A DNA stretch of 64,000 bases from a virus (taxonomy: Duplodnaviria; Heunggongvirae; Uroviricota; Caudoviricetes): the IMG/VR virus record IMGVR_UViG_3300042691_010651. One strand, 5' to 3'. Under the pieces are notes generated by a model. It was not told the DNA's origin. It did no database searches and saw only the letters and a list, made by a program, of their open reading frames with translations. Positions within the stretch are counted from its first letter, which is position 1. Each line of letters opens with the position of its first letter. Made by a program: the position numbers and the translations under genes. This document shows positions 18,999 through 59,412 of this stretch, in pieces.

Positions 18999-19008
18999 TA
19001 AACTAACA

Positions 19009-19043
19009 AGTAGAGGAGGTAAAATCTCCTCTACTTATTTTTA
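19009..19043 (+). terminator. rho-independent terminator after the capsid candidate
   Basis: AGTAGAGGAG-GTAAAAT-CTCCTCTACT 10-bp stem followed by TATTTTT. Confidence 0.8.
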
Positions 19044-19072
19044 ATTAAAACTAAATCAAACTAAACTAAACA

Positions 19073-21096: not shown

Positions 21097-21128
21097 AAAT
21101 ATTGTAAACATTAAAAACTTAAAATAAT

Positions 21129-23666: not shown

Positions 23667-24458
23667 ATGGCAGTATATAAAACAACATCTATAAAACCAT
23701 TAATAGCAAGAGTTATTCGTAATACTCGTATTATTGATATGACTTATGCTGATGATATAATGGAATGGATAGGTGAAGCTTTAGATAGATGCATGATTAG
23801 ATCAAGACTTGAAAAGACATATAAAGTACTTACTATATCAAATCATTCTGCAAAACTTCCATGTGGATTAGTTAGTTTATCTGGAGTAATATATAACGGA
23901 AGAAGATTGAGAAAAGGAACATCAAGTATAGATGTTAGAATACAAAAAGTTCCAATATCTGAACTAAAAAGTTATTTTGTAACTGATACTGAAATACAAG
24001 CAGAAGATATTAATTCTCAAAATATAAATCTATTAAGAGGAGGAAATATAGTAAAAGTAGATAGTACTGAATTACAAGATAACTTTTATGATTTAAGTTA
24101 TAACTATATTAAAACTTCATTTAAAGAAGGACAAATAATTGTTTGTTATAAAGTAGCACCTATTGATAGTGAAGGTTATCCTATAGCTCCTGATCTTGAA
24201 GAATTAAGAGAAGGAGTATTTTGGTATGTATGTAGTAAATTAGTATTTACTGGATATAAACTTCCTAATAGTGATATGACATATGCATATTGTGATGCTC
24301 AAGCAACTAAATTCTTTAGAAAAGCAAAGAATATAATTAAAGCAGAATCAACTGATGAAAAAGAAAATCAAGTACAATTAAGAAATAATTTAATACCTCC
24401 TGATAACTATTACGAATCATTTTTTACTGGTGGAGAACAACGTAAATTTGTAAGATAA
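23667..24458 (+). CDS. hypothetical virion protein (263 aa)
   Basis: ATG start. Confidence 0.55.
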   Translation: MAVYKTTSIKPLIARVIRNTRIIDMTYADDIMEWIGEALDRCMIRSRLEKTYKVLTISNHSAKLPCGLVSLSGVIYNGRRLRKGTSSIDVRIQKVPISELKSYFVTDTEIQAEDINSQNINLLRGGNIVKVDSTELQDNFYDLSYNYIKTSFKEGQIIVCYKVAPIDSEGYPIAPDLEELREGVFWYVCSKLVFTGYKLPNSDMTYAYCDAQATKFFRKAKNIIKAESTDEKENQVQLRNNLIPPDNYYESFFTGGEQRKFVR

Positions 24459-28252: not shown

Positions 28253-29094
28253 TGAAAAGAACACTAAAAAAATTTAAAGGTGGAGGTGCAGTTCCTTATG
28301 CTCAACTAGGACAAATTGGATCAGATTTAGTTAATAATATTTCTCCTCAAGATGAATTTGGTGTTCAAGATGATTTTGCTGCTGGAGCTTCTGGGGCTTT
28401 AAGTGGAGCTGGAACTGGAGCTGCAATAGGTTCAGTAATTCCTGGAATTGGTACAGCAGTTGGTGCAGCAGCAGGAGGAATTATAGGAGGAATAAGTGGA
28501 GTATTATCAAATAATAAAGCTAAAGAAGCTAAACAAAAAGAATTAAATAGAAGAAATTATATACAAACTCAAGAAGATAATGCTAAATTATCTATATATG
28601 ATACTACTGGATCTAATAATAATCAAATATATGCTAAATATGGAGGTAATATAACTAAATATTTTGATGGAGGTAATCTTAAACAATTATCTGATGGATC
28701 AGCAGAAGTAGAAGGTGCTTCACATGAAGAAGGAGGAGTAATGTTATCACCAGAAGTTGAAGTTGAAGGAGGAGAAACTTTACAAGGATTAGATCAAAAT
28801 GAACCATTTGTATTTTCAGAAGAATTAGGATTTGCACAACTTCATAAGCCTATTGCTAAAGCAATTGGTAAGATGGAAAAGAAAGTACCTAATACAATTA
28901 CAAATAATAGTATTAGACTTCTTAAACAAAAAGAAGAAGCATTAAAGATGCAACAAGAAGAATTTAAAGAACAGTTTGGTTTAAAAGAATTAGGTGAATA
29001 TGCATATGGAGGTAGGATTCCACAAAATTCTAAAACTAAAGATTCTTCTAAATTTATTGTAGTAGATAATAGACTAATTAGAATAAAGAAATAA
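28252..29094 (+). CDS. glycine-zipper protein (280 aa) with hydrophobic GxxxG segment AIGSVIPGIGTAVGAAAGGIIGGISGVL
   Basis: Read directly. It could be a membrane-inserting tail or ejection component. Confidence 0.55.
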   Translation: MKRTLKKFKGGGAVPYAQLGQIGSDLVNNISPQDEFGVQDDFAAGASGALSGAGTGAAIGSVIPGIGTAVGAAAGGIIGGISGVLSNNKAKEAKQKELNRRNYIQTQEDNAKLSIYDTTGSNNNQIYAKYGGNITKYFDGGNLKQLSDGSAEVEGASHEEGGVMLSPEVEVEGGETLQGLDQNEPFVFSEELGFAQLHKPIAKAIGKMEKKVPNTITNNSIRLLKQKEEALKMQQEEFKEQFGLKELGEYAYGGRIPQNSKTKDSSKFIVVDNRLIRIKK

Positions 29095-29095
29095 T

Positions 29096-30535
29096 ATGAA
29101 CCAAAAAATTAGAAAATATAATAATCCAACTTTTACTGGTGTAAAGTCTAGTGATATAGTATATGCTGAAGGAGGAAATGTAGGTAAATCATTAAGAGAT
29201 ATTAATTTTACTTCTAGAGCAAATAAATTAAATTTTAAAACTGGTAATATTCAAGCAGGAAAATCTTTATCTGATTTAAATTTAACTAAATCTGTATCTG
29301 GAAAACCATATACTAAGGTAGGTAAATGGCAACCTACTCAAAAAGAAAAAGATTTTCTTGCAAGTAAAGAAGGTAATAATTCATTTACTGATGTTGCTGA
29401 TTCATTAATTCCTTATGCTAGTAATATATCTAATGCTCTTAGGAAGTTACCTAAACCTATTGCATCAAGAGCTGAGTCTACAATATCTCCTAATTTAGTA
29501 AATTTAGATGCAGCACGTACTAATATAGATAATTCTCAAAGAAATTTAGATAGAGAAACTGATTATAGAGTATCAAATCCAGCAGTAGCTCAAGCAATTA
29601 AAGCTGCTACTTTTGAAAAAACTGTAAATGCTAAAAATCAATTAGCTCAAGAAGAAACTAATCAAAATGCTCAAATTAAAAATCAAACTAGTCAATTTAA
29701 TCAAGGTGTTATAGCTAGAAATATTCAAAGAGAGAATGAGTTTAACACTAATTTAGTTGGTAGAAATATTCAACAACAAAATTTATTATCTGATAATTTA
29801 GCTGATGTTGGAACAAAATTTCAACAACAAAAAGCTGATAACGCTGCAATAGAATTAGAAAGAGAAAAAAATTCTTATCTTCCTGATTTCTATGAAAAAA
29901 ATACTTCTGGAACTTCTGTATATGATAGACTTAAAGCAAAAAGAAGTAAAAGAGGATATGCTTTAGGAGGAGAAGTTGATCCTGATCCTAAGAAAATACC
30001 ATGGAAAAAATCTAACGAAGTTCTTTTTCCTACTACATTTAAAGAAAACAATATATTAGACTCTGCTAAATACGATGGAGCTAAATTGTACAAAGCTCAA
30101 AAAGCTAAATTAAATAACTATCAAGGAATAAATGGTAAACCGTTATTTACTGGTGTTGCTCCAAATAGAGAAACTCCTATAAAAGAGTCACTAACTCAAG
30201 AAGAAATAGATTTAGTTTTAAATAAACCTTTTAATAGAGGAGCTACAGTAAATAAGAACTTTGCTGGAGATAATGGTTATTTAGGTGTAAAATTACGTGA
30301 ATACGATACAGAGAGAGGTACTGAATATGGTGCTGATGAATTTGTATTACGCAGAGATCCAGTTAAATCTGTAGCTAAACCAGTTCCTGTAAAGGTACTT
30401 AAACCTCATGATATAATGGGAAAAGAAACTAATGATCAAGGTCAATTTGCAACTCAAAGACCTATATCAGTTAGAAATAGTTCTACTCCTAAAATGAAAA
30501 TTAAAAGACTTGGTGGAAAATTAAAGAGATGTTAA
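29096..30535 (+). CDS. Asn/Gln-rich virion protein (479 aa)
   Basis: ATG start in the structural operon. Confidence 0.55.
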   Translation: MNQKIRKYNNPTFTGVKSSDIVYAEGGNVGKSLRDINFTSRANKLNFKTGNIQAGKSLSDLNLTKSVSGKPYTKVGKWQPTQKEKDFLASKEGNNSFTDVADSLIPYASNISNALRKLPKPIASRAESTISPNLVNLDAARTNIDNSQRNLDRETDYRVSNPAVAQAIKAATFEKTVNAKNQLAQEETNQNAQIKNQTSQFNQGVIARNIQRENEFNTNLVGRNIQQQNLLSDNLADVGTKFQQQKADNAAIELEREKNSYLPDFYEKNTSGTSVYDRLKAKRSKRGYALGGEVDPDPKKIPWKKSNEVLFPTTFKENNILDSAKYDGAKLYKAQKAKLNNYQGINGKPLFTGVAPNRETPIKESLTQEEIDLVLNKPFNRGATVNKNFAGDNGYLGVKLREYDTERGTEYGADEFVLRRDPVKSVAKPVPVKVLKPHDIMGKETNDQGQFATQRPISVRNSSTPKMKIKRLGGKLKRC

Positions 30536-31105: not shown

Positions 31106-32884
31106 ATGGCAGAATTATATGATCAAGTAAGACAAAGTAATTCAAAATATGTACCTCAATTTGTGGGTAGTAATTTTGATACTTTAAAAAGTCTAGGTGA
31201 TACTTTACAAGATCGCTATAATAAGAATTTAGATATATCTAATGCATTAGCTATTCAAATGGCTAATGATCAATATTTAGAACAAGATCAAGCTATTGGA
31301 GAAAAGCATTATAATCAATTTTCAAAAGCTATTGACGAAATAGCTGGTTCAGATGATAGTTTTGAAAACTCATCTAACATAGTATCTCAATTAGTAAAGA
31401 ACTACGGATCAGATAGAGATAGAATTGCTGCATTAGATAATAAAAAAATATACGAACAATATATTTCAGAGAAACAAAGGCTTGGAGAAAAAGCATTAGA
31501 TTTTACAAGACCAGAAAACTTTAAAGGTACAGTAAATGAAGATGGTACTTATAATCGTTTTAGTTATGATGTACAAGAAAGATTAGATTATGATAAACCT
31601 AAAGAAGCATTATTTAATCAAATAGAAGCTAGTTATAATGAAGGTGAATTATCTCAAGATAAAAATAATCCTGAGTTCTTACAAAGTATAACTAGAGGAG
31701 GTATATCTTCACAAGATATTAAAAACAAATATTTAAATCCTGCAATTCAGAGATATAGAGGAACTAATGAGTATAGACAAGAAAAAAGAAAGTTACAAGA
31801 ACTTGATGGTCTTACATCAGAACAAGCAGATAAAGAAATTGAAAAATCTATACTTGCTACTGGATTAGAAAAAGTATATGGCTTCTCAAAAAGAGATAGC
31901 CAGAGACATAGTGAGTTTTATTTATCTAATCAAGGAAAAGTATTAACTGATAATGATGGAAGTAAATATGAATTATCACAAAGTGTAGAAACAAAAATTC
32001 CTATTATTAGTAAAACAAAACTAGGTTCTGATCCTGTACAAACACAAGCAAATAATAATATTATAGGAGGACTTGCACCTATAAATAGTAGAAGTGCTCA
32101 AACATCTGGTAAAGCATTTAATGCAGAAAAAGCATATACTAATTTAGATGCTAATGAGAAAACTAAGTTTGATAGAATATTAAAAACATTTAGTCCAGAA
32201 ACTAAACCTAATTCTAAGGAAGCATTTAAGATAGTAAATGATTATATTAAGCAAGTAGAAACAAAAGAAGCAGATGAAAATACACCTATTATAAAAGCTG
32301 CTCCTGATACATATAAACCTGGATTTGATTATACAGCAGTTGGAGCATCAGGTAAAAGTTTAGGACAGAAAGCTACAGATGATTTAAAAATATCATTTAA
32401 TAATAGAGTATTTTATAACCCAACTACAGGAGAAAAAATATCTGGTTCTGATCCTAAGTTCCTAAAAAAGATAAACGAGCAATTTGATACTGATTTTGAT
32501 ACAGTAAAAGATTTTCAAAATGCAATAGATATTAAAGGTGAGTATTCTCCTAAGAATAGATTTACTGTAATAGCTGGAAATGAAGCTTTTGCAAATCCTT
32601 ATGCTGCTGTTTTAAATGGTAAAGATTTAGCAGTAACAAGAGAAGCTAGTTACTACAATAGTTCTGATGCTCAAAAATCAGCATTAGTAAATAAAGCTTA
32701 CAATGCTATGAAAGAACTTCCTGGAATTGTAAACAATGTAGATATTGCAGGTATTAACTTTGAGATACAAGAAACTCCAGAAGGTAGAGTTATTTTAAGG
32801 ACAGACAATCCTGATTTTGTAAAAGAACATGGAAAAGAAGTATCTCTAGATGATGTTACTCAGATAGCTTTATTTTTTAAATAA
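31106..32884 (+). CDS. virion internal or ejection protein candidate (592 aa), first of three consecutive very large genes
   Basis: ATG start. Translationally coupled (ATGA) to the 1304-aa gene. Confidence 0.6.
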   Translation: MAELYDQVRQSNSKYVPQFVGSNFDTLKSLGDTLQDRYNKNLDISNALAIQMANDQYLEQDQAIGEKHYNQFSKAIDEIAGSDDSFENSSNIVSQLVKNYGSDRDRIAALDNKKIYEQYISEKQRLGEKALDFTRPENFKGTVNEDGTYNRFSYDVQERLDYDKPKEALFNQIEASYNEGELSQDKNNPEFLQSITRGGISSQDIKNKYLNPAIQRYRGTNEYRQEKRKLQELDGLTSEQADKEIEKSILATGLEKVYGFSKRDSQRHSEFYLSNQGKVLTDNDGSKYELSQSVETKIPIISKTKLGSDPVQTQANNNIIGGLAPINSRSAQTSGKAFNAEKAYTNLDANEKTKFDRILKTFSPETKPNSKEAFKIVNDYIKQVETKEADENTPIIKAAPDTYKPGFDYTAVGASGKSLGQKATDDLKISFNNRVFYNPTTGEKISGSDPKFLKKINEQFDTDFDTVKDFQNAIDIKGEYSPKNRFTVIAGNEAFANPYAAVLNGKDLAVTREASYYNSSDAQKSALVNKAYNAMKELPGIVNNVDIAGINFEIQETPEGRVILRTDNPDFVKEHGKEVSLDDVTQIALFFK

Positions 32885-35800
32885 TGGGAAAAAAGTTAAG
32901 TTTAAAAAGTAAGGCAGAACTACAATCAACATTTAATCAAGATGTTGATCCACTATTAGCTACTTCTGAAAAAGTAGGTAATACTCAATCTATATATGAA
33001 AAAACTCAATATGATAAAGGTTATTTACCTGCATATGGAGATTTAGATGGATATAAAGCTAGACAACAACCTGCTATAGATCAAGTAGGTAATACTTTAC
33101 TTAGAATAGTTCCTGCTATTGGATTAGATATATTAGAAACTACAGGAGATATAGTAGAATTATTTGATAGAGATGACACTAAAGAATATACTAATGCTAT
33201 TACAGAATTAGCAAAAGAAGGTAAAAAGAAATTAGATAAAGATTTTCTTGGAGGACTAAAAAATTATCAAGAAACTCCATCAAATGAATTTGCACCTTTA
33301 TCTGATTCTGGATGGTGGGTTAATCATGCAGAAGGATTAATAACATCTATTGCTTCTTTTGGTTTAACTGGAGCAGGTATAGGAGGTGCTTTAGGTAAAG
33401 GAGCAAAATTATTAAATGGAACTATTCAAAATATTATAAAAACAACTAAAGGAGCAGAAGCTATTGCAAAAACTACACAAGGTTTAGCTCAATTAGGTAC
33501 AGCAGCAGGTTTGACTCATGCAGAAGCAGTTAGATCAGGAGCAGATGTGTATAGTAAATTAAAAGATGATATTATAAATAATGGATATGATTATGGTGAT
33601 GGAATTAAAGTTCCTGTACCAGAACAAGAAGCTATAAGACTTGCATCAGAAGGTGCTGCAAATACTTATAATTTTAGTTTTAATACTAATTTACTTCTTA
33701 ATATTACATCTTTAAATCCTGTTTTTAAATCATATAGTAATTTAAGTCAATCTGCAAAATCTCAATTAATAAGAGGTAATAAAGAAAATCTTAGTGATTA
33801 TGTTAAAAGATTAACTTTGTTAGAAAAAGAATTACCTAAACAAGCAAGTACATTAGGTAAATTAGCTAGAGAATCTGGGCAAGAATATCTAGAAGAAACT
33901 AATACTTTAGTTGGTGAAAAAATAGGTTTAGAACAAACTAAAGGAGCTAAAAGAAAAAGTAATAGTGATATATATTTAAATACATTAGCATCAGAAGAAG
34001 GAGCTATAACAGGTATATTAGGAGCTATAGGAGGTATAGGACAAACTGCTGGATTAGAGTTTGTTCCATATAAAACTTATGAAGATGAAAATGGTAAAAC
34101 TCAAAGAGTATCTGCTTATCAATTAGAGGGAATAGAAAAACAGAAATATCATAAAGAAACTATATCTACTTTAAAAACAGATATAGAATATCTTAGAAAG
34201 AATCAAGAAGATTTAAATACAGCAATTAAAAATGATGATAGAGTAGGTGCAGAAGTAGCTAGAAATAATCTATTTAATATTGCAGCACTTAAATCTATAA
34301 GAACTGAAACATCAGAAGAACTAAGTAAAGAAATTGCAAGTATTGCATCTGTAGATAATACTATAATTAGAGAGAATGGAAAAACAGATGCTCAAAATCA
34401 AGGTCTTGCAGATAATGTAGATGATAATCAATATAAAGAAACAGCAGCTAAAAAAGCAATTGATCTTAGACAATTAAATAAAGAGTTTAGAGATTTAAAT
34501 GCTATTATACAAGACCCTCATGTAGCATCAGAAGCATTTAGAAGAAGATTAGATGTATATTCACTAGAATCAACATTAACAGATTTAACAAAAGCTTCTC
34601 AAAATAAGGAGCTAAATCTTAATGTTAATTTTCCAATTAATCAAATAGATGCTGCAAAATACAAAGCAGAAACCTTAGCATATCAAAGTGCAGTACTTTA
34701 TCAAGAAGCAAAAGGTGATAAAAAATCTGCTGATCTTCTTAGATCGGAAAGTCAAATAGTAACATCTCTTTATAGTGATTTAGTAAAAGAGAATCCTAAT
34801 TTAGATAAAGAACTAGAATCTAAGATTGGTGTACTTGCTCCATTAGCAAAAGATTATGCAAATCAACTTGTTGCTAAACAAGAAATTAATAAAGCAAAAG
34901 ATAATTATTCTAAGATATTAAACGATCCAAAGAAGTTTAAAAAAGAAGTAATTGATCCTGCTATCAAAGAGTTAACAAAAGAGAAAGAAAGAAAAGAGAA
35001 AGAGCAAAAAGAAGCAGAAGTCAAAGCTAAGAAAAAAGCAGATTATGAAGAAGCTAAATTAAAAGCAGATCAAGAGAAAAGAACTAAATTAAGTGAACAA
35101 ATAAATAATGTTCAAACTGAAAAAGATTTAGATGCTTTTTTAGAAGAATCAGATAAAAATAATTTAACTACTCCAGAAATTATTGATCAAATTTCTAAAA
35201 AAAGAGAAGAACTTAATAAACAAAACAATGAAGAAAATACTCAGAAAGTTGACAATGTTATTGAAGAAGTTCAAAAAGATGCAGAAGTACAAGATAAAAC
35301 GTTAGCAGTAGATCAGCTTTCTAATCTTACTCCTATATCTGAAATCTATGTACCTCCTACTGAAAAAGAAAAACAAGAACAAGAAAATATTATAAACGAA
35401 CAATTAAATAAACAAGAAACTCTAACTACAGAAATTTATGGTAACCACAACAAACTTGCTTACGAAGCTCAAGAACAAGATCAAGAAGGAAACACTATTG
35501 ATAGTACCATTATTAATGATAATTACAAAATATTACATGATAATACCATCTCCGTTGGTACAGAGTTAACTCTTAAAATTGATACAGATTCTCCTTTCTA
35601 TGAAGCAAATAAAGATGATATAAACACAGTACCAATAGGAGTTTATTATAAAGAAAAACTTATAGGTTATTTACCAACTTATAGAGGACAAAATAAACAA
35701 CTAGTATTTGCAAGAAATTTTATCTTTAAAAATAAAGAAGTTAAAGATACAGTTGGTAGAAAAACAGCAGGAGTTTTAAATATAGGAGAAAAAGCTTTAG

Positions 35801-36798
35801 TTGCAGATAACTTTTCTTTTACTCCTGATTTTCTAATAGGAAGAAATGAACAGTTTGAAGATAGTTTAAATAGTATTTATGACAAAGAAGAATTATTAAA
35901 TAAACAAGGTTCAAGATCAGGTTATCTATATACAATGACTCCAACTCCTGATGGTAAGCAAATAGCTTTACCTGTTGATATTGATAGAGTTGATTCTGAG
36001 ATAGTAGATTCATTGATGAAAGCTTTTAATTTATTCTTTAAAAAAGGAAAGAAAGGACAAGAATCTAAATTGACAGAAGAAGAACAACAACTAGTTGTTA
36101 AAATTCAAAATGAATACGATCAAGATATAACTACTCCACAAGGATTATCTTGGTATTTTAATCAATGGTTTACAGCAACAGACTTATCAAGTACTGATAA
36201 AGGAGAAGCTAATGTTGAAAGAATTAACCAAGATTTAAGAAGTAATAACAACTATCTTGAATTAGTATCTGGAGGACTAAAAATATTATCTAATCCATCT
36301 GTACAGAATGGACAAAGTGGTAAACCTTTATTTTATGGAGCTAATGATATTACTAATGAAGGTAAAAGAAATAGAGTTATTGCTTTATTAAATAATACTT
36401 TCTATAGAGCAGATTTAACTAAGATAAATAGTAAAAGAGAATTTAAAGTTCCTATATTAAATACAAAAGATAATAATGTAATTGAATATAAAAAGAAAAG
36501 TTATAATGAGCACTTATCTTCTATATCAAGAACTAATGTAATAGCTGTTAACATAGGTAATAATAAACAAACAGTATTTGTACAACCTACAATTAACTTA
36601 AACTTTGATTTCTTGAAAGAGTCACAGTCAAAAGAAAATTTGGATTTTACAACTGAAAATGGACAAAAATTTGTATCTTTAACCACAAATAAAAAAAGTG
36701 GTCTTAATACTTTAGATGAATTTGAAGCTGATGAATTTCAATCTGAAAATCCTACAGAAGAAGAATCTAAAGAATATAAAGATAGATGTAAACCTTAA
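32884..36798 (+). CDS. large virion ejection or tape-measure-like protein (1304 aa) with Gly-rich hydrophobic segments and a long charged coiled coil
   Basis: GWWVNHAEGLITSIASFGLTGAGIGGALGKG and TGILGAIGGIGQTAGL segments. KE-rich helix around residues 690-760. Confidence 0.65.
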   Translation: MGKKLSLKSKAELQSTFNQDVDPLLATSEKVGNTQSIYEKTQYDKGYLPAYGDLDGYKARQQPAIDQVGNTLLRIVPAIGLDILETTGDIVELFDRDDTKEYTNAITELAKEGKKKLDKDFLGGLKNYQETPSNEFAPLSDSGWWVNHAEGLITSIASFGLTGAGIGGALGKGAKLLNGTIQNIIKTTKGAEAIAKTTQGLAQLGTAAGLTHAEAVRSGADVYSKLKDDIINNGYDYGDGIKVPVPEQEAIRLASEGAANTYNFSFNTNLLLNITSLNPVFKSYSNLSQSAKSQLIRGNKENLSDYVKRLTLLEKELPKQASTLGKLARESGQEYLEETNTLVGEKIGLEQTKGAKRKSNSDIYLNTLASEEGAITGILGAIGGIGQTAGLEFVPYKTYEDENGKTQRVSAYQLEGIEKQKYHKETISTLKTDIEYLRKNQEDLNTAIKNDDRVGAEVARNNLFNIAALKSIRTETSEELSKEIASIASVDNTIIRENGKTDAQNQGLADNVDDNQYKETAAKKAIDLRQLNKEFRDLNAIIQDPHVASEAFRRRLDVYSLESTLTDLTKASQNKELNLNVNFPINQIDAAKYKAETLAYQSAVLYQEAKGDKKSADLLRSESQIVTSLYSDLVKENPNLDKELESKIGVLAPLAKDYANQLVAKQEINKAKDNYSKILNDPKKFKKEVIDPAIKELTKEKERKEKEQKEAEVKAKKKADYEEAKLKADQEKRTKLSEQINNVQTEKDLDAFLEESDKNNLTTPEIIDQISKKREELNKQNNEENTQKVDNVIEEVQKDAEVQDKTLAVDQLSNLTPISEIYVPPTEKEKQEQENIINEQLNKQETLTTEIYGNHNKLAYEAQEQDQEGNTIDSTIINDNYKILHDNTISVGTELTLKIDTDSPFYEANKDDINTVPIGVYYKEKLIGYLPTYRGQNKQLVFARNFIFKNKEVKDTVGRKTAGVLNIGEKALVADNFSFTPDFLIGRNEQFEDSLNSIYDKEELLNKQGSRSGYLYTMTPTPDGKQIALPVDIDRVDSEIVDSLMKAFNLFFKKGKKGQESKLTEEEQQLVVKIQNEYDQDITTPQGLSWYFNQWFTATDLSSTDKGEANVERINQDLRSNNNYLELVSGGLKILSNPSVQNGQSGKPLFYGANDITNEGKRNRVIALLNNTFYRADLTKINSKREFKVPILNTKDNNVIEYKKKSYNEHLSSISRTNVIAVNIGNNKQTVFVQPTINLNFDFLKESQSKENLDFTTENGQKFVSLTTNKKSGLNTLDEFEADEFQSENPTEEESKEYKDRCKP

Positions 36799-36807
36799 TC
36801 TACATTA

Positions 36808-39800
36808 ATGAAAGCTTGTCCTAATACTAATTCTCTAGAATGGAAGTTATTAGAAAAGAAAGCAGGATTGTATGATGCTGCTTTTGATCTTTTTATACAA
36901 AATGGAGAAGAAACTCCTTCTATTGAACAAATAGAAGAATATTTTAAAGGTAAGGAACTTATACCTACTGATAAAGAAGGTTTAATTACTTATCTTAAAT
37001 CTAAGAAAGCTCCTAATGGAGCTAATCTTTTTAGAGAAGAAGAAGGACAACTAAAAATTGTAAATAAGAAAGGATCAGACTATAATCTATCTAATGCTTA
37101 CAAAGTACTAGGTAGTATCAATTCTCAATTTCCTGGAAAAGTAAAATTATCTAAAGATAGATTTGGTAAAATAGTTGTATCTGTTATAGAAGGTCAATTA
37201 CCTTTATTTGATCTACCATCTACTAACACTACAAACAATCTATTACTTCCAGGATTTAAATCTTTCTATCAACAAAAAGAAGTAGTAGATGTTTTATCTA
37301 GTAGTGTTTTAGCTTACTATAGAGATAACAAACAAGAGAAATTATTGTATAGTAAAGCTATTGAATCAATTAAACAGAATATAACAGATATAAACAAATC
37401 TGATCCTAGAGAAGTTTATCAATTAATACTTAATAATTTAGATGCTTTATCTTTAGAAGTTAGAGATAAGCTACAAGCATTAAGATTAATAGCAAAACCT
37501 AAATTAGAAGGAACATCTTTAGATAAATCTACGGAAGTTACAGAAGATGAAGAAGGAGTTGAAGGAGCAGAAGTAGTAGGTTCACAAGGTCAAGATGAAT
37601 GGGTATTTCAATATGACTCAAAAGATAATGCATTAGAAGCTATTAAAAAGTTTTTAGCATTTATTCCTAAAACAGTTTATAACAAATCAGATGATAGTTT
37701 TAAACTTGTTGAAAGTATAATTCCTAAGCAACCAGTCTTTTTATCATACGATGAAGTATATGAACAATTAAAATCTGTACTTGCTGGAGTAGATAATACT
37801 TGGGAAGCTATGGAAGAAGAATTAAGGTTAAATGCAAAAGGTAAACCTTTTATTAACACCTTATTGAAAAAGATAAACAATTATAAAGAAGATAAAGAAC
37901 AACTAAAACGTCAATTTGTATCTACCATGAGTTCTTCTTATGGTAACTTTAAAACTATAATTGTAAAAGATAGAACAGATAGAGAAGGAAATATACTTGG
38001 TCAATATTTTAATGTAATAGATACTGATAGAACTTCTATTGAAAAAACTATTATATCTAAATGGCAAGGAGATTTCAAAAGATCAAATCTATTTGATGAA
38101 GTAGATGGAGATTTGATTTTATCAAAAGAGAAGGTAGAAGAATATCGTAAGAGATTAAAAGAAATTAAAGAAGAACCTACATTAGAAAATGTAAAAGAAG
38201 TATTAGAAAAGATAGGTATTACTATTTCAGATAATACTTTAGATAGATTAGTAAATGGAGTTGTAAATAGATTATCAATTAATCAACAATTTACTTCTGA
38301 TTCAGGTTTATTTAAATTAATTGATCTTAGATTAGGAGCTAAAGAAGTAAAAGAAGGAGAAGATGAATTTAACGAATTAGATGAAGAAACAATTGTTAAT
38401 GATCCTACTGTAAACAATTCAGCAATAAGAGCATTAGCAAAATTAGATTCTTATAATAACGAAAGCTATTACTCTAATACATTTAAAGATGGAGAAGGTA
38501 ATACAGTTTATTCCTATACATTTAATAAATTCTTAACTAAAGAATTTAACAAGATACTTAATGATGATAATCATGTAAAATCATTATTAGATATTACTTT
38601 TAACAAACCGATATTTAACGGAGAAACTCCTATATATGATACTTGGTTATATTTAAGAGATACTAAACCAGAATTATTTAAAGAGATATTTACTATTTCA
38701 CCTTTAGATACTTTAAAAGTAGGTAAAGATGGAACTAAGTTAAGTTCTATGTCAGACTTAGACTTAGAAATAACTCAACTTGCTTTAATGCAAAATTCTG
38801 GAAGTAGAAAGAAAGGTCTTGGAGGAGAAGATACAAAAGGAACTAGAATCATAAAATATCTTATAACTGTTCCTGATAAAACTACATCTTATGTAGTACA
38901 AGGAACTGGAATAGATGTTAAATTATTTTTTGATAAAGAAGGATATAGAATAGGAAAGAGAACAATAGATGCGTTATATTCTGTAGTAGCATCTGAGCAC
39001 AATCGAATACTTTCTCAACAAGCAAGAAAAAGTGAAAACAAAGCATACAATAAAGGTTCTAATTTTTTCTTTTTCTTTCCTACATTAAATGATCTAATAT
39101 TTAATAAAGATGAAAATGGTAAAAAAACTACAGTTAAATTACCTACTGATAAAATAGGAGATAAGACAGTAGAACAAATCATAAAAGAAGAATTAAATCG
39201 CATCATAAAAAATGATGTATCTAACAAATTACAACAATGGAAAGAATTAGGTATTAGTTCTCAAACATTAAAGTTAGTAGATTATAATTACTTACAAAAG
39301 ATACTTGCTTCTCAAACAGATGATCAAAATAATCAATTAACATTAGCTGCTGCTGATTATATTGTTAATAGTATATTAGCTAAATTTAATTCTCATCAAA
39401 CTTTTATTGATGATCCTGCTGTTTATTTCAAAACTGATGTAGCTACAACTTGGGATAACGTTGGTAAAAGATTAACTAATCTTATCGCACCTTTTAAAGA
39501 AGGTATGATAGATTCAACTAATAAATATTTTTTATCTGTAAAATTAGCTGATATAGAATCATCTGCATTAAACAATGCACAACTAGCTGCAAGATTGTCA
39601 AAATATTATGAAGATAATAATATTGGACTTCCTTACGATGCTATTAAAGGAACAGATGCTCAAGAATATATTACTTTAACTGAAAAATTAAAAGTAATGT
39701 ATATGTATGGAGAAATCTCTACTAAATTATATAATGATCTATTAGAGAAAATCAAAACTCAAGGAAATAATTTAGTACTTACAAAAGATGAATTAGAAAA

Positions 39801-42800
39801 AATATTATTTAGTTCTGATAAACCTGTATATTCTTCAAGAATAGTCTCTAAAGAAGATGATACAATATATAGAGAATATATTAAATCTTCATCATTACCA
39901 TTAATTCCTCAATTTACTCAAGGTTTAGAAATAGATAAACTTAGAGTAGCTATGGAGAAATTACAAAATTCTTCTAGTAAATCTGTACGTGCTGCATTTA
40001 ATACTGCTACTAAATTAGGAGGTAAGCAAAGTATTAATATCTGGAATACAGATGGAACTATAAAAGATGATTTAGATTTAACATCTTATGCAGTAGAACT
40101 TGATAGAAGTAACTTTGGTATTCAACAAGAAATACCTTATGATGAAACTAAAGATGAAACTGTAAGATCAACTCAAGTACTTAAATTATTATTTGATAGT
40201 ATTGAAGAAGTATCTGGTTTTAGATATGATAATAAAGTATATAGTGGACAAGAATTAAAGAAAATATATGATGATTTACAAAATCAAATATATGAAGATG
40301 GTTTGAAATCTATTGAAAAAAGAATAGTAAAGAATGGACAACTTAATAAACCAGAACTAATAAAGCTATTAAAAGGAGAAGGTATTAAAAGAAATTATTC
40401 TCCTGCTCAAATAAGTTTCTTAATAAGTAACTTAGAAAATACAGATTTTGAAATACCTTTTTGGGCACACACAAATAATGATAAAGAGCAATCAATGCTT
40501 ACTTCTATCTGGACTAACAAAGTCTTGAAGCAAAAGATGCCTGGAGGTTCTTATGTACTTGTATCAGAAGAAGGTATGCAAGGAAAATCAGTAGGCGCTT
40601 TATATTCTCAATCTTATGATCCTGCTACTGGTTTAAAACCTATGAGGATTGTTTATAAAAAAGATACTGAACAATTAGAAGAAGAAGAATATAAAAAATT
40701 ATCTAAAGCTGATAGAGAAGGATATAGAGAAATTGTAAAACCTGCTCAAGTTATAATGTCTTGGAACTTGAGAGATCAGAATGGAAAGTTATTAAATCAA
40801 AATGATTATATCACAACAGATGAACAAGGTAATAAATTCCTAGATACTAAAAAAATACCTAAAGAATTATTAAATCAATTTGGATTTAGAATACCAAATC
40901 AAGGACATAATTCTATGTCATTGATAGAAATAGTTGGATTCTTACCAGATATATATCAAGGTGTAGTAATTGCAAGTAGAAATTTTGTAACTCAAATGGG
41001 TTCAGATTTCGATGTTGACAAGCTATATGTATATAACTATTATTTAAATGCAGATAAAGAAGGTAATCTTTCTAAACAAGATGATGCAAAAAATAAATTA
41101 GTTGATATACATAAATCAGTATTATATAACAAATCAGTATTTGAATCAGTAGTTAAACCTCTTGATTTAGGAAAAATTAGTTATGAAACTGCTGATGGCA
41201 AGAAAGGTGGTATAGCTGAAAAGATAAAAAAACAAGAGAATACTAATAAAGAAAATTATCTTAATCCTGATTATTCTAAAAACAAATATTTACAATCAGT
41301 AGATGGTAAAGCTATGGTTGGTATTACTTCTGTAAGTAATACATTTAGTACGCTATTACAAGGAAAAGAAATATCCTTACAAAAAGTAGTAGTTATAAAT
41401 GATGAAAAACAATATGTACCAAATTATATAATTTTTGAGGTAGACGGTAAAATAAAAGAATTTTCAGATTTAAGTTCTGCATTTACATATTCTGGAAGAA
41501 AGAAAAATGAACTTCATCAATCAATTCAATCTGCATCTGTAGATAATGGTAACAATCCTATATTATCTTATATTAACGTAAATCCTGCAACATCATCTGC
41601 ATTAACATTAATGCTTGATTTAGGATTAGAAGAAGATGAGATATATGGATTACTTGCTCAACCAATACTTAAAGAATATACAAAAAGAGTAAAATTAAGT
41701 AAAAGTAAGTTACAAGATGAAGTAAAAAAAGAAGAAGATATATTACTTGATCTTATAAAAGAAAATAGTGTACTATACAACGAATTAAGTACTAAACTTA
41801 AAATGGATGATCTAGAAAATTATCCATTATCTAAAAATCATTTTAATCAAGTTTTATTTAATGAAGGTAAAACTGACTTAACTAATGAAGAAATTCAAGT
41901 ACTAGTTTTACAAAAGTTTGCACAACTTAAAGAAATAGGAGATAAGTTATCAAGATTTCAGAATCTATTAAATATAGAATCTAAAGGAGTCGGTAAAAGT
42001 TTATTAGATTTATCTGATAGAAGAACTTCTATTGATAAATTATTTAACTCAATTCAGTTTAAAAATATAAACAAATTAGTTGGTGAATTTGATGAAGGAG
42101 AATTGACTCCTAATACTATTACTGGTTATGCACTTACAAATTCAATATTTGCTGCTGATGATGTAATTAAGAACTCTAACTTAATGCCTTACTCAACAGA
42201 GGAATTTAAAAAGTTACTAAAACAATACGAGAGTATTACAAACAAAGAACCTAATACTGATCAAAAATATGAAGTATGGAAAGCTATAAAAGCTTTTATA
42301 TTCTCTAACTACTTTGATCCTACTGAAAGAACTAGAATATTCTTTGATGGTAAAGATAACAAATCATTAAATACAAGAATAAATGCTTTAAGAAAAACTA
42401 AACTTAAAAATAATCAATTTATTTTAAGATTAGATTTATCTAAAGTAGATTTAAGTGGAAAAAATCCTTCTTATGTATTTTATAATTCTTCAAAAGAAGC
42501 TGATATAGAAGAATTAAATACTTACAAGAGTTTCTATGAATTAGTATATAATGAAGATCCAGAGATAGTATCAATAGGACAAGATTTAATTAGATATTTT
42601 TATCTTAATGGAGGTATAACTAACTCGAAAGATTGGGGTAGATTTATAGATGCTTCTATGCTTACCAACATAGGATTATCAGAATTTGCAAAAACAGTAA
42701 ACTTTTCTATACCAGAAACTTATGGTTATAAACCAGAAATTTCTGATGTACTATTACAATTATTTCAACACAAACCTTATTTAACAGTTAGATTAAATAA

Positions 42801-45800
42801 TACTGCTGATGTTAAAATAAAAGACGGAGTAATAACTATTAATAAAGAAAAAATACCTAGAGAATTAATATCTGCTAGTTCTACAAAACCTGTAGTTGTA
42901 TTTAATTTAAATAAGAAATTATATAAACTAGATAATAGAGATGAAGATGGTAATTATATCTATCGTTCTATTCCAACTTTAGGTAAGAAATTCTTTAATG
43001 AATATCAACAAGACAAAGTAGATAATCCTGTAGATTTTCAAATAAGAGAAACTGTTAATAATCCACAGACTTATCCTAATCCTTTTGTAGAAGATGAGTT
43101 TGATGGTATATTAGATGTTACTGTATCAGAAGCATTATCTAATATAAACAATAATAAATATCATAAAGAACTAGTTAATCTATTTAAGAAATTAGAAGGT
43201 ATTATAGGAAATATTAAAATAGAATCTACAGAAGAAGTAGGTTACTTTGGTAGATGGGATCAAAAGACTATCGGAGTAAGTTTAAAAGAATTAGAAGATA
43301 AAGGAAGATTAAATAGAGAAACTGTAGAATCTACAATATTAAAAGAGATTGTACATGTTCTTAATACAAAACTATTTAGATCAGAATTTACTCCTACACC
43401 AGAGCAAATACAAGCTAGAGCAGCTATAAATACTTTATACAATTCTATAAGAGAAAGAGTATTATCTGGAGAACTTACTCAATGGAATAGTGCTGATTTT
43501 ATTAAATACGAAAGTATATTAGCAAAACTTAGAAGTAAAAAAGGAGTAACAGATCAAGAGAATGAATTTTTACTTACTAATAAAGCAAAGTTTTATGGCT
43601 TAACTAATGTAGAAGATTTCTTACATGATGCTTTATTACAAGAAGAATTTAGAGATTTATTAAATTCTATACCTTATGATGCTGATAAATCTTTACTTGA
43701 TAGATTTATAGATTTAATATCTGAGATACTTAATAAGTTTGGTAAATTAGTTAATATTAATAAAGGATCAGCTCTTGAAGAAGCATTTGTTCAGTTAATT
43801 AAGTTAACAAATGAAACAAATCAACAGTCAGATAATACAACTCAAGATGAACAAATTTTCTATGATTTAGCAGAAAAGAAAATCAAGAAAGAAGAACAAA
43901 AGAATTATGAAAAAGTAATTAAAGATTTTGAAGTAAGAGAAAAAAGAATTAGTGAAGATATAACTAAAGCAAATGCAAACAAAGATAAAGTTTTAGCTAC
44001 TACACTTACTAATAGATTAAAAGAAATAAGATTAGAAAAAGAAGAACTAATTGCAGATAACACTTTAGAAACTTTAATTAAGTTTGCTAATAATGATTTT
44101 AAATATATAGAATCTATTTTAGCAAAACCAGAGTTAAATGAAAGTGAATTAGAAAGAAGTTCTTTATACTTAGGTACTTGGTCTAATATAGATAACATAG
44201 ATATTTATAAAATTTTATCTAGTTATGATGTTAGAACTGAATCACCTAAAGCAATTATATTTAAAGAAATAGCTGAAAAAGCTAAAAGATTAAATACAAG
44301 AATTGAAGAAGCAAAAATAGAAGTAGAAATACAATTAGTGCAAGATTTATTAAAAAGAAATGTATCAAGAGATCAATTAACTGTACATTCTGATGTAGGA
44401 TATACTCAATCAAAAACTAGAGATATATCTACATCTAATAATGTAATTCTTGATGTAGTAGATCAATTAATTCGTACTGCTGATTTTGCAACAACTACAG
44501 AATTAAATAAACTAATTAAACGAGTAGAAGATTTAACTGAAAAATTATCTAAATTAAACATTACTTCAAGAGAGGATTTTGCTAGAGTATTTGGTCAAGT
44601 AGATGAAGATGGACAACTAACAGGTTCAGTAGTAAGTGCTTTATCTTATGAATATTTTAGAGTTAGAGATTTACTATTAGAGAACATAAAAGATGCACCT
44701 AATCCTGGAGCTAAGAAAAAAGCATCAGAAAAGTATTATAATTGGATAAAAGAAAATCATATTATAGTTGATCCAAACAAATTGTATCAAGAAGATAATG
44801 ATGGTATATTTATCTATAAACCAGATGCAAAATATCTACAAGCATTAGAAAAAGAATTAGGTGAAGATTATCAAAAAGTAATTAAAGAAGCAAAAGAAAA
44901 GACAGAAGAATATAATGATTTGTTAAGATTGCAAATAGAAGCTACTAAAGATAATCCTGATGCAGCTAGAATATTAGAAACATGGAAACTAGAAAATAGT
45001 CCATTAATCTACATTGATAACTTAGTAAATGGATTAACTATTAGAAAGAGTGAAGGAAAAATTATATATAATCATGGATGGCAATTTATATCTAAAAGAG
45101 CTAAATCTCAATGGGAAGATTCTAAATATAATGAACTTCAAAAAAATGATGATTTAAAAGAATATTACGATTGGTATGTATCTACAATGAAAGAGTTGAA
45201 TGAATACTTACCGTATAATGTTAGAAAGAATCTTAAATCAACTGATATTCCTTCAATAAGCAAGAAGTTACTTGAGGAGTTACATGATACTGGTATAAAC
45301 AAATATGCAAATAGAACTTGGAGTGCTTTATTAGAAGAACTTAGTGTTAAGAAAAATGAAGTACAAAAACTTGTAAATCCAGAGACAGGTAAAGAAGAAA
45401 AACAATTTAGTTTTCAATACTTAGAAGAATTAGATCCAAAAGATAAATCTTATAATCTTACTCAAGTAATTAAATTATTTGCAGCACAAGCAATTGGATA
45501 TAAACATAAATCTCAAATTGAAGATAAGATAAGACTTTCTCAATCTATATTAGATAATGCTTTAGAAACTGATAAAGTTGGTAAAACTACAACTACAAAA
45601 GGATTAGCTAATTTAAGAAGTCAACTTAATTATGCAATAGATGCAGGTTTATATGGAATAAAGAAAGATAATAAAGAAGGTAGATCAAATATTCAATTTA
45701 TAACATCAGCAGATAAAGAAAAATTAGCAAGAGAAATACAAAAAATTGAAGCATCTGATATGACAGATGTAAAGAAAGCAAATGCTATAAGTAAAGCTAC

Positions 45801-47079
45801 AGAAAAATATACTAGAGTTTTAACTTGGTCAAAAGTAGGTGATACTTTATTACAATATACTCAACTTAAAGGTATGGGTTGGAATATATTTGGTGGAGTA
45901 AACAATGCTTTATTTGGTCAATTAGCTAATGCTAACTGGGCAGCAACTGGAGTTGATTATTCAGATGATGATTTACAAAAAGCAATTGGTACAATGCTAA
46001 TTGCTCAATCTCCAAATGATTCTTCTACAAGAAAAAAGGTTGAATCTTTAATGATTAAATTTAATACAGTAAAACAACTTAGAGATAAAATATATAGTGC
46101 TACAACTAACTATAACAAAGCTAGAAAAGGACTTCAAAAATTATCTCCATATGAGTTATATGCACAAGGTGAATATTTTGTACAAGGTCAAGTTATGGTG
46201 GCATTACTTAATGCTACTAAAGTAAAAGTAACAGAAGATGGAGTAGAAAAAGAAATAAGCTTATTTGAAGCATTTGATGAAAATGGTAATTGGAATACTG
46301 AAAAATTTGGAGAAAATTCAGAGTATTCAGAGTTAGGAGCTAACACTTTAAAATTCAAGTTCAAGTTAGATAGCTTATTGAAAAAGATACATGGTAACTA
46401 CGATCCTAATGCTAATATAGCTATTAATGAGAAGTTTGTAGGTCGTGCTTTAATTCAATTTAGAAGATGGATTCCAGAAGGTGTTGCTCAAAGATTTGAT
46501 GGAGAAAAGTATGATAACTATCTAGAAAGAACAACTAAAGGTAGATACTTAACATATTACGATTTAGGTTGGAAAAATTCACTAAAAACTTTATTGAAAT
46601 TAGCTATTACTAGAGGTAAAGATTCTTCTTTTAAAGATTTAAATCTAGAAGAAGATAATCTAAATATAGTAAAAGAAAACATGAAGAAGAATCTTAGAGA
46701 GATTTATTTCAAACTTTCTATGATGGGTATGTTCATGTTATTATCTGGACTAGACGATGATGATGAATGGACTAGAAGAGCTAAAAACTATAGTCTTAAC
46801 ACAATACTTAGATTACAAGATGATATTGAGTTTTATTATAGTCCTATGGCTTTTGATAATATAACTAGATCAGCACTTCCTGTATCAAGTATAATTGTAG
46901 ATTTTGCTAAATTTAGTGACAGTTTTGTAGATACATTAGAAGGTAATGGAGAATATAAATCTGGTAAACATTCTGGTGATAGTAAGTTGTTATGGAAAGG
47001 AGCTAAGTTGTTACCTCTTACAACAGCAGTTACTAACTTAATTAATAAAGGAGAAGCTCAAGAAAGTTTTAGAAAATAA
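36808..47079 (+). CDS. giant (3423 aa) virion-associated RNA polymerase-like protein with a multisubunit-RNAP β′ double-psi-beta-barrel catalytic motif
   Basis: Residues about 1361-1404: FRIPNQGH ... (33 aa) ... MGSDFDVDKLYVY. This matches the β′ NRAPTLH ... NADFDGDQMAVH module, with a DxDxD metal triad at 41005-41019. Gene size and position after the structural genes are typical of crAss-like ejected RNAPs. Confidence 0.6.
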   Translation: MKACPNTNSLEWKLLEKKAGLYDAAFDLFIQNGEETPSIEQIEEYFKGKELIPTDKEGLITYLKSKKAPNGANLFREEEGQLKIVNKKGSDYNLSNAYKVLGSINSQFPGKVKLSKDRFGKIVVSVIEGQLPLFDLPSTNTTNNLLLPGFKSFYQQKEVVDVLSSSVLAYYRDNKQEKLLYSKAIESIKQNITDINKSDPREVYQLILNNLDALSLEVRDKLQALRLIAKPKLEGTSLDKSTEVTEDEEGVEGAEVVGSQGQDEWVFQYDSKDNALEAIKKFLAFIPKTVYNKSDDSFKLVESIIPKQPVFLSYDEVYEQLKSVLAGVDNTWEAMEEELRLNAKGKPFINTLLKKINNYKEDKEQLKRQFVSTMSSSYGNFKTIIVKDRTDREGNILGQYFNVIDTDRTSIEKTIISKWQGDFKRSNLFDEVDGDLILSKEKVEEYRKRLKEIKEEPTLENVKEVLEKIGITISDNTLDRLVNGVVNRLSINQQFTSDSGLFKLIDLRLGAKEVKEGEDEFNELDEETIVNDPTVNNSAIRALAKLDSYNNESYYSNTFKDGEGNTVYSYTFNKFLTKEFNKILNDDNHVKSLLDITFNKPIFNGETPIYDTWLYLRDTKPELFKEIFTISPLDTLKVGKDGTKLSSMSDLDLEITQLALMQNSGSRKKGLGGEDTKGTRIIKYLITVPDKTTSYVVQGTGIDVKLFFDKEGYRIGKRTIDALYSVVASEHNRILSQQARKSENKAYNKGSNFFFFFPTLNDLIFNKDENGKKTTVKLPTDKIGDKTVEQIIKEELNRIIKNDVSNKLQQWKELGISSQTLKLVDYNYLQKILASQTDDQNNQLTLAAADYIVNSILAKFNSHQTFIDDPAVYFKTDVATTWDNVGKRLTNLIAPFKEGMIDSTNKYFLSVKLADIESSALNNAQLAARLSKYYEDNNIGLPYDAIKGTDAQEYITLTEKLKVMYMYGEISTKLYNDLLEKIKTQGNNLVLTKDELEKILFSSDKPVYSSRIVSKEDDTIYREYIKSSSLPLIPQFTQGLEIDKLRVAMEKLQNSSSKSVRAAFNTATKLGGKQSINIWNTDGTIKDDLDLTSYAVELDRSNFGIQQEIPYDETKDETVRSTQVLKLLFDSIEEVSGFRYDNKVYSGQELKKIYDDLQNQIYEDGLKSIEKRIVKNGQLNKPELIKLLKGEGIKRNYSPAQISFLISNLENTDFEIPFWAHTNNDKEQSMLTSIWTNKVLKQKMPGGSYVLVSEEGMQGKSVGALYSQSYDPATGLKPMRIVYKKDTEQLEEEEYKKLSKADREGYREIVKPAQVIMSWNLRDQNGKLLNQNDYITTDEQGNKFLDTKKIPKELLNQFGFRIPNQGHNSMSLIEIVGFLPDIYQGVVIASRNFVTQMGSDFDVDKLYVYNYYLNADKEGNLSKQDDAKNKLVDIHKSVLYNKSVFESVVKPLDLGKISYETADGKKGGIAEKIKKQENTNKENYLNPDYSKNKYLQSVDGKAMVGITSVSNTFSTLLQGKEISLQKVVVINDEKQYVPNYIIFEVDGKIKEFSDLSSAFTYSGRKKNELHQSIQSASVDNGNNPILSYINVNPATSSALTLMLDLGLEEDEIYGLLAQPILKEYTKRVKLSKSKLQDEVKKEEDILLDLIKENSVLYNELSTKLKMDDLENYPLSKNHFNQVLFNEGKTDLTNEEIQVLVLQKFAQLKEIGDKLSRFQNLLNIESKGVGKSLLDLSDRRTSIDKLFNSIQFKNINKLVGEFDEGELTPNTITGYALTNSIFAADDVIKNSNLMPYSTEEFKKLLKQYESITNKEPNTDQKYEVWKAIKAFIFSNYFDPTERTRIFFDGKDNKSLNTRINALRKTKLKNNQFILRLDLSKVDLSGKNPSYVFYNSSKEADIEELNTYKSFYELVYNEDPEIVSIGQDLIRYFYLNGGITNSKDWGRFIDASMLTNIGLSEFAKTVNFSIPETYGYKPEISDVLLQLFQHKPYLTVRLNNTADVKIKDGVITINKEKIPRELISASSTKPVVVFNLNKKLYKLDNRDEDGNYIYRSIPTLGKKFFNEYQQDKVDNPVDFQIRETVNNPQTYPNPFVEDEFDGILDVTVSEALSNINNNKYHKELVNLFKKLEGIIGNIKIESTEEVGYFGRWDQKTIGVSLKELEDKGRLNRETVESTILKEIVHVLNTKLFRSEFTPTPEQIQARAAINTLYNSIRERVLSGELTQWNSADFIKYESILAKLRSKKGVTDQENEFLLTNKAKFYGLTNVEDFLHDALLQEEFRDLLNSIPYDADKSLLDRFIDLISEILNKFGKLVNINKGSALEEAFVQLIKLTNETNQQSDNTTQDEQIFYDLAEKKIKKEEQKNYEKVIKDFEVREKRISEDITKANANKDKVLATTLTNRLKEIRLEKEELIADNTLETLIKFANNDFKYIESILAKPELNESELERSSLYLGTWSNIDNIDIYKILSSYDVRTESPKAIIFKEIAEKAKRLNTRIEEAKIEVEIQLVQDLLKRNVSRDQLTVHSDVGYTQSKTRDISTSNNVILDVVDQLIRTADFATTTELNKLIKRVEDLTEKLSKLNITSREDFARVFGQVDEDGQLTGSVVSALSYEYFRVRDLLLENIKDAPNPGAKKKASEKYYNWIKENHIIVDPNKLYQEDNDGIFIYKPDAKYLQALEKELGEDYQKVIKEAKEKTEEYNDLLRLQIEATKDNPDAARILETWKLENSPLIYIDNLVNGLTIRKSEGKIIYNHGWQFISKRAKSQWEDSKYNELQKNDDLKEYYDWYVSTMKELNEYLPYNVRKNLKSTDIPSISKKLLEELHDTGINKYANRTWSALLEELSVKKNEVQKLVNPETGKEEKQFSFQYLEELDPKDKSYNLTQVIKLFAAQAIGYKHKSQIEDKIRLSQSILDNALETDKVGKTTTTKGLANLRSQLNYAIDAGLYGIKKDNKEGRSNIQFITSADKEKLAREIQKIEASDMTDVKKANAISKATEKYTRVLTWSKVGDTLLQYTQLKGMGWNIFGGVNNALFGQLANANWAATGVDYSDDDLQKAIGTMLIAQSPNDSSTRKKVESLMIKFNTVKQLRDKIYSATTNYNKARKGLQKLSPYELYAQGEYFVQGQVMVALLNATKVKVTEDGVEKEISLFEAFDENGNWNTEKFGENSEYSELGANTLKFKFKLDSLLKKIHGNYDPNANIAINEKFVGRALIQFRRWIPEGVAQRFDGEKYDNYLERTTKGRYLTYYDLGWKNSLKTLLKLAITRGKDSSFKDLNLEEDNLNIVKENMKKNLREIYFKLSMMGMFMLLSGLDDDDEWTRRAKNYSLNTILRLQDDIEFYYSPMAFDNITRSALPVSSIIVDFAKFSDSFVDTLEGNGEYKSGKHSGDSKLLWKGAKLLPLTTAVTNLINKGEAQESFRK

Positions 47080-53403: not shown

Positions 53404-53415
53404 AAAATTGAAATT

Positions 53416-59409: not shown

Positions 59410-59412
59410 ATT

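Follow-up and report, generated by a model that had tools for sequence, protein, structure and literature searches.

The window analysed here is a 64,000-nucleotide (nt) stretch of DNA from the IMG/VR virus record IMGVR_UViG_3300042691_010651 (Duplodnaviria; Heunggongvirae; Uroviricota; Caudoviricetes). Three consecutive large genes occupy positions 31106-47079, and the last of them encodes a protein of 3423 amino acids (aa). We conclude, at a probability of roughly 0.9, that this protein is a virion RNA polymerase of the phage phi14:2 gp66 type, that it is encoded in a crAss-like cargo block, and that the product of a neighbouring gene is fused to its C-terminus. Homology, predicted fold, conservation of the catalytic residues, synteny and the frequency of the same fusion in relatives carry this conclusion.

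The three open reading frames (ORFs) of the block, all with an ATG start, are:

31106..32884, + strand: 592-aa gene, first gene of the block, encoding a candidate small cargo protein
32884..36798, + strand: 1304-aa gene, encoding an orthologue of phi14:2 GenBank gp078, the virion protein whose gene precedes that of the polymerase
36808..47079, + strand: 3423-aa gene, encoding an RNA polymerase with both barrels in one chain, extended by a zincin-like domain and a C-terminal module

An earlier note on this DNA, written by a model from the letters and an ORF list, had placed the three ORFs at these positions, and its coordinates held. The stop codon of the 592-aa gene and the start codon of the 1304-aa gene overlap by 1 base (TAATG), and a gap of 9 nt separates the 1304-aa gene from the 3423-aa gene. 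At the base composition of the block (A 0.43, T 0.31; G+C 27%), stop codons should come up about once in 10 codons, and a run of 3423 codons free of them has a computed probability of ~1e-151; the long frame is therefore not a product of chance. The other five frames hold 154-561 stops. Among the family libraries, Pfam returned nothing for the three proteins, and PHROGs returned no more than 'virion structural protein' for the polymerase.

Polymerase core of the 3423-aa protein

Two motifs of the β′ type had been read in the 3423-aa protein, and both are present with the spacing originally given. FRIPNQGH occupies residues 1360-1367 (R1361, P1363, H1367), and MGSDFDVDKLYVY occupies residues 1397-1409, which gives D1400, D1402 and D1404. 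DFDVD at 1400-1404 is the sole D-x-D-x-D motif in the protein. When the 3423-aa protein was compared with PDB sequences by phmmer, a single entry was matched, 6VR4_A (phi14:2 gp66; E 3.3e-23), with GFRIPNQGH...GSDFDVDKLYV aligned to GYRIPNQGQ...GSDFDIDKMYV.

We aligned residues 900-1660 with 20 homologous segments of metagenomic relatives that were 29-57% identical (21 sequences in total). A profile of the 21 homologues again matched 6VR4_A alone in the PDB (E 1.3e-76). An AlphaFold2 (AF2) model of residues 900-1660 built on this alignment reached a predicted local distance difference test score (pLDDT) of 85.5 and a predicted template modelling score (pTM) of 0.85. Foldseek comparison of the model with the PDB placed 6vr4_A at the top (E 3e-33, template modelling (TM) score 0.73), and the next matches were Pol II Rpb1 (E 5e-4), Pol I A190 and QDE-1 (probability 1.0). 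This ranking is the pattern expected of a two-barrel polymerase, and the model and its match to 6VR4 provide the double-psi beta-barrel fold that had been proposed around the named motifs.

The landmarks of gp66, whose boundaries were taken from bioRxiv 10.1101/2020.03.07.982082, were transferred by profile alignment. The connector, catalytic motif, bridge helix and trigger loop map collinearly, and the core features are as follows:

39805..40107, + strand: beta-like double-psi beta-barrel, ~residues 1000-1100, directly before the connector in the gp66 alignment; AF2 strands at 1004-1107; boundaries approximate
40108..40554, + strand: connector domain, residues 1101-1249, by profile alignment with the gp66 connector (1095-1238)
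40555..41052, + strand: beta-prime-like double-psi beta-barrel, ~residues 1250-1415, aligned to gp66; holds RIPNQGH and DFDVD
40888-40908, + strand: RIPNQGH, residues 1361-1367, aligned to gp66 RIPNQGQ
41005-41019, + strand: catalytic DFDVD, residues 1400-1404, aligned to gp66 DFDID (1361-1365)
41263..41358, + strand: bridge helix, residues 1486-1517; gp66 1529-1559 maps to 1486-1516, and AF2 gives one 31-residue helix at 1487-1517
41500..41616, + strand: trigger-loop region, residues 1565-1603, to which gp66 1598-1636 maps

The second, beta-like barrel had not been located by eye; the gp66 alignment and the AF2 strands place it at ~residues 1000-1100. Within it, K1005, P1006, Y1024, K1026 and K1069 are invariant in the 21-sequence alignment. 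In cellular polymerases, a beta-type barrel is expected to be marked by conserved lysines. The same alignment showed R1361, I1362, P1363, M1397, D1400, D1402, D1404, K1405 and D1433 to be invariant, together with D1579 and N1590 in the trigger-loop region. This compact list of invariant residues in both barrels could guide mutagenesis. The identification of the 3423-aa protein as a crAss-type virion RNA polymerase was thus borne out: RIPNQG and DFDxDK align residue for residue with phi14:2 gp66, and the predicted fold agrees.

The phi14:2 enzyme (gp66; PDB 6VR4; GenBank Phi14:2_gp077) and the window protein are alike in being single chains with two double-psi barrels, a connector, DFDxD, a bridge helix and a trigger loop; their flanking genes also correspond, and both are encoded after the tail genes. 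They differ in sequence, with an identity of ~24% to the solved enzyme that makes the window protein a deeply divergent addition to the crAss-type virion polymerases, and in motif details (DFDID in gp66 and DFDVD here; HEIMH in phi14:2 gp076 and KEIVH here). By its predicted fold, the 3423-aa protein is a two-barrel-type polymerase and not a beta-prime subunit of a multisubunit enzyme: it gave no Pfam RNA_pol_Rpb1 match, its motif reads SDFDVD instead of NADFDGD, and Rpb1 was a distant fold match only. Neurospora QDE-1 and the cellular multisubunit polymerases share the two-barrel catalytic core as judged by the fold matches, but they have no detectable sequence similarity to the 3423-aa protein, which is a single chain and carries V instead of G at the fourth residue of the catalytic motif.

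An N4-type virion RNA polymerase, which has a T7-like fold, was considered and rejected, as the core is two-barrel and no N4 or T7 polymerase was found among the sequence or fold matches. YonO did not turn up in the PDB, phage or fold searches; no direct comparison with YonO was made.

The 3423-aa protein might instead be a structural or ejection protein that derives from a polymerase and no longer makes RNA. The phi14:2 enzyme was crystallised in a self-inhibited state (bioRxiv 10.1101/2020.03.07.982082), and the degenerate zincin-like domain of the window protein, described below, indicates that parts of the block can decay. Against such a loss of function, every residue that is invariant in the 21 diverse homologues has been kept, among them the aspartate triad, R1361, P1363, K1405 and the beta-like barrel lysines, and the bridge helix and trigger loop are present. 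We consider a dead polymerase very unlikely.

Near the N-terminus, an acidic, glycine-containing stretch, EVTEDEEGVEGAEVVGSQGQDEW (residues ~232-262), lies near the expected position of the cleft-blocking domain of gp66 (196-233); residues 249-328 of the 3423-aa protein align to gp66 214-282. The stretch may have the same self-inhibiting role as the gp66 domain.

Zincin-like domain and C-terminal module

The claim that the 3423-aa protein is about 1200 aa longer than the 2180-aa phi14:2 enzyme was correct. Alignment with homologues delimited the extension to residues ~2150-3423, which contain the following features:

43255..43857, + strand: zincin-like (SprT-like) domain, ~residues 2150-2350, homologous to the HExxH region of relatives; boundaries approximate
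43342-43356, + strand: degenerate zincin motif KEIVH, residues 2179-2183, found by alignment
45805..47076, + strand: conserved alpha-helical C-terminal module, residues 3000-3423, with an HGNYDP motif and a hydrophobic helix followed by DDDDE (~3303-3320)

Residues ~2150-3423 are an orthologue of the virion protein whose gene directly follows the polymerase gene in phi14:2, FpV4 and cr55_1, fused here in frame. Residues 3010-3406 matched the C-terminus of phi14:2 gp076 (975-1402; E 1.5e-10), and residues 2474-3413 matched cr55_1 gp071 (E 9e-27), the product of the gene that follows the DFDVD-bearing gp070. A weak match to FpV4 gp33 was also obtained with the C-terminal part. The greater length of the 3423-aa protein is explained by this fusion of the downstream gene, which in phi14:2 encodes the 1421-aa gp076.

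In BLASTP, residues 2150-2420 matched the HExxH region in over 50 relatives as well as in FpV4 gp32. In the relatives, HExxH lies ~780-900 residues after DFDxD. A motif search found no exact HExxH in the 3423-aa protein, and KEIVH emerged by alignment alone. Among 43 aligned relatives, the first motif position is H in 29, E in 11, T in one and K in two; the two closest relatives compared have KETIH and KETVH. The SprT-like zincin family PF10263 was the weak top match in five of the six relatives scanned as zincin-region fragments and passed the cut-off in a seventh that was scanned whole (P0154; 31.4 bits), whereas Pfam SprT-like was not detected in the 3423-aa protein itself. The domain is homologous to that of the relatives but is probably not an active zincin.

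The neighbouring protein of the gp065 type has been reported to carry a zincin-like protease domain (bioRxiv 10.1101/2020.03.07.982082). Its motif is found as HEVIH at residue 4065 of FpV4 gp32, at the end of the polymerase gene, and as HEIMH at residue 245 of phi14:2 gp076, early in the downstream gene. These two phages thus have their gene break on opposite sides of the zincin domain. This direct mapping shows that the zincin domain and the C-terminal module can lie on either side of a gene break.

In this clade, the zincin domain may have lost its first metal ligand, and the degenerate motif makes self-cleavage by the domain doubtful. If the zincin normally cuts these polyproteins, the 3423-aa chain might stay uncut, with the polymerase permanently joined to the conserved ejection-type module; we regard this outcome as unlikely. 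Were it true, the logic would be comparable to that of Thermus phage P23-45, whose polymerase is fused to the tape measure.

An AF2 model of residues 3000-3423 was all-helical (pLDDT 71). Among predicted structures, it matched crAss-like proteins, such as the phi14:2 structural protein S0A048 (1421 aa; TM 0.76, E 8e-11) and the 'putative RNA-polymerase subunit' of cr111_1. When residues 2301-3423 were searched exhaustively with HMMER, 1652 representative proteins were found, 520 of them at E 1e-30 or better. The exhaustive search was needed because a word-indexed search with sub-regions had given only 1 and 4 proteins, its index being swamped by K/E/N-rich words. Among the best 150 matches, 64 are longer than 3000 aa, and 62 of these carry DFDxD upstream of the module; the remainder are mostly stand-alone proteins of 1100-1500 aa. 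Fusion of the polymerase to the module is thus common in the relatives. The module is widespread and has neither a solved structure nor an assigned function, which makes it a reasonable target for structural work.

The C-terminal third had been described as free of recognisable motifs and as a possible new fused function, such as capping, membrane penetration or tail attachment. A sequence search of solved structures with the C-terminal part found nothing meaningful, no Pfam match was obtained either, and the hydrophobic helix with DDDDE is conserved, all of which would suit a new function for residues ~2300-3423. Nevertheless, this part is common to the 1652 representative proteins, it is the C-terminal portion of the protein adjoining the polymerase in phi14:2, FpV4 and cr55_1, and it is fused in 62 of the 64 relatives longer than 3000 aa among the top 150 matches. 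In addition, we claim no membrane helix in the module, because a hydropathy scan found no segment of transmembrane grade in any of the three proteins of the block. A newly acquired function is thus highly improbable, and the description as motif-free gives way to an orthologue of phi14:2 gp076, FpV4 gp33 and cr55_1 gp071 with a degenerate zincin motif at 2179. Nor is the extension itself novel: many relatives share the fusion, which had been described before (bioRxiv 10.1101/2020.03.07.982082).

The two parts are separate genes in phi14:2 and cr55_1, as would be expected if a lost stop or a frameshift in sequencing or assembly had joined them here, but the chance of such an artefact is close to negligible: other, independent assemblies share the fused frame (P0003, 3427 aa; P0005-P0011, six of these seven being 3340-4790 aa; L007, 3617 aa), and the split position varies among phages, which makes boundary shifts a real feature of the family. 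The last of these assemblies, an NCBI contig of 92.7 kb, is a relative with 62.6% identity and the same layout (611, 1274 and 3617 aa).

Several observations were made on other carriers of the module. In the cyanophage Lbo-JY46 of Leptolyngbya (PP438436.1; L009 2092-10338), a 2748-aa protein combines two HExxH motifs with the C-terminal module (E 3e-21) and lacks DFDxD; its gene is the last of a rightward block, after which the coding strand switches. The module therefore also occurs outside Bacteroidota phages, without a recognisable polymerase motif in the same ORF. Some stand-alone carriers have a PD-(D/E)XK nuclease-like N-terminus. A metagenomic stand-alone carrier of 1403 aa (P0001) matched Pfam PDDEXK_1 at 20.4 bits, just below the cut-off, and the BFVD carriers A0A7M1RRN3 and A0A8S5TT56 are named exonuclease or PD-(D/E)XK. 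Weaker fold matches of the module model were to 'large polyvalent protein' domains of other tailed phages.

Upstream genes and the proposed cargo role

Previous studies have reported that gp66 is packaged in the virion and transcribes early genes, that the products of the two genes adjacent to it are also in virions, and that some phages fuse all three into one polyprotein (bioRxiv 10.1101/2020.03.07.982082). The phi14:2 block encodes proteins of 593, 1797, 2180 (the polymerase) and 1421 aa, and all four were found in virions by mass spectrometry. Virions of crAss001 contain cargo proteins and three polymerase-associated proteins (PMC10172136).

The 1304-aa protein aligns along its full length with the N-terminus of a 4790-aa polyprotein (P0008; 30% identity over 1259 aa, E 2e-135) and has matches in 38 giant relatives; in many relatives, its counterpart, the polymerase and the C-terminal partner make up a single polyprotein. 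The profile of its family matched FpV4 gp32 residues 602-1605 (E 2e-24), and hhalign matched the family to phi14:2 gp078 residues 47-217 (probability 98%, E 3e-13). From the matches to the giant polyproteins, FpV4 gp32 and phi14:2 gp078, the 1304-aa protein is a conserved upstream partner of the polymerase. A tblastn search of phage genomes with the 592-aa and 1304-aa proteins gave no match, and the link of the latter required the profile. Sequence searches of solved structures with these two proteins returned nothing meaningful.

No Pfam, PHROG, PDB or phage-database match was obtained for the 592-aa protein. It has 15 stand-alone homologues of 592-676 aa, one of them identical, and the contigs that carry the identical protein come from two JGI metagenome samples and one ENA metagenome assembly. 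In two related contigs of ~93 kb, the homologue is encoded in the same place, just before the 1304-like gene. Its similarity to phi14:2 gp079, a 593-aa protein found in virions by mass spectrometry, was not significant (E 0.37); position and size weakly suggest a correspondence to gp079 or to crAss001 cargo protein 2. The proposal in the earlier note that both upstream genes encode cargo proteins therefore stands for the 1304-aa protein, a homologue of the virion protein gp078 and of the polyprotein N-termini, and is weak for the 592-aa protein.

In one relative (L008; Logan SRR31730589, a 94-kb contig), the 1339-aa upstream protein carries a Pfam GGACT match, and the polymerase gene is broken (15907-21887). 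A 1397-aa ORF matches residues 135-1266 of the 3423-aa protein at 53% identity and ends before the catalytic barrel, and it is followed by ORFs of 165 aa and at least 424 aa. An inserted mobile element, an intron or a genuine split of the gene could account for the break.

Among isolated phages, the best match to the 3423-aa protein is FpV4 gp32, a 4287-aa 'virion structural protein' that is 24-25% identical over residues 279-2335. Both have a fused arrangement with a zincin-like domain after the polymerase. They differ in that gp32 joins a 1304-like protein, the polymerase and the zincin domain and leaves the C-terminal module separate as gp33, whereas the window phage has its gene break ahead of the polymerase and joins all the parts that follow. 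Protein boundaries in the transcription block are known to vary (PMC7886860). The 'transcription gene block' of uncultured crAss-like phages (Yutin et al. 2018, 2021; cr55_1 gp070/gp071; crAss001 gp47/gp49/gp50) likewise has several very large genes, one with DxDxD, and gene boundaries that differ between phages; its products have been found in virions.

By analogy with phi14:2 and crAss001, the three proteins of the block would be packed in the capsid as cargo. They would then be ejected, partly unfolded, through the tail into a Bacteroidota host, ahead of or together with the DNA, after which the polymerase would refold and transcribe early genes without relying on the host enzyme. The fused parts might also be separated by proteolysis.

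Some findings weigh against the assignment of the 3423-aa protein as a gp66-type virion polymerase in a cargo block. It has no match to the Pfam RNA polymerase families, as is usual for this enzyme family. The relatives from which packaging, ejection and activity are extrapolated share only ~24% identity. The zincin motif lacks its first histidine, so the domain may not separate the fused parts, if that is normally its job, and no characterised cargo protein is significantly similar to the 592-aa protein. On balance, the 3423-aa protein is a new, very divergent example of a known polymerase type, mildly unusual only in its KExxH variant and its particular fusion point, and these results leave the current understanding of crAss-like phages unchanged.

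Genome context in the 64-kb window

The window corresponds to the structural half of the genome of a highly divergent crAss-like phage. The structural genes from terminase to muzzle all lie upstream of the polymerase block, and the annotated genes outside the block are:

11574-13748: terminase large subunit (PHROG family)
13753-16134: portal (PHROG family)
17502-18998: Crassvirus major capsid protein (PF23898, above cut-off)
22438-23094: tail ring protein 2 (Crassvirus Pfam family, above cut-off)
23667-24458: ring protein 1 (Crassvirus Pfam family, above cut-off)
24458-28252: Crassvirus muzzle protein (Pfam family, above cut-off)
28252-29094, + strand: 280-aa protein, first gene after the muzzle, with a glycine-zipper segment (~45-90) matching pieces of tape-measure and tail-lysin families
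29096-30535, + strand: 479-aa ORF, no family match
58714-59409, - strand: MazG-like pyrophosphatase
60110-61357, - strand: PHROG family member, function unknown

The terminase is ~30% identical at best to that of any sequenced phage, which sets the window phage far from the gut Crassvirales; its top matches came from gut crAss-like genomes and from the Flavobacterium psychrophilum FpV4 group. By position, the 280-aa and 479-aa genes could correspond to crAss001 cargo protein 1, a putative membrane-inserting protein.

A scan of the window with ARAGORN gave no tRNA genes, although in some gut crAss-like genomes such genes lie close to those for replication. Downstream of the block, a region on the + strand (49576-55563) has a G+C content of 0.33-0.38, compared with ~0.27 elsewhere, and covers ORFs of 1275 aa and 715 aa. 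These gave no PHROG or Pfam match and may be tail fibres or recently acquired genes. At ~58400-64000, coding switches to the - strand and the GC skew changes sign. In FpV4, MazG likewise follows the polymerase block, in the same layout as in the window.

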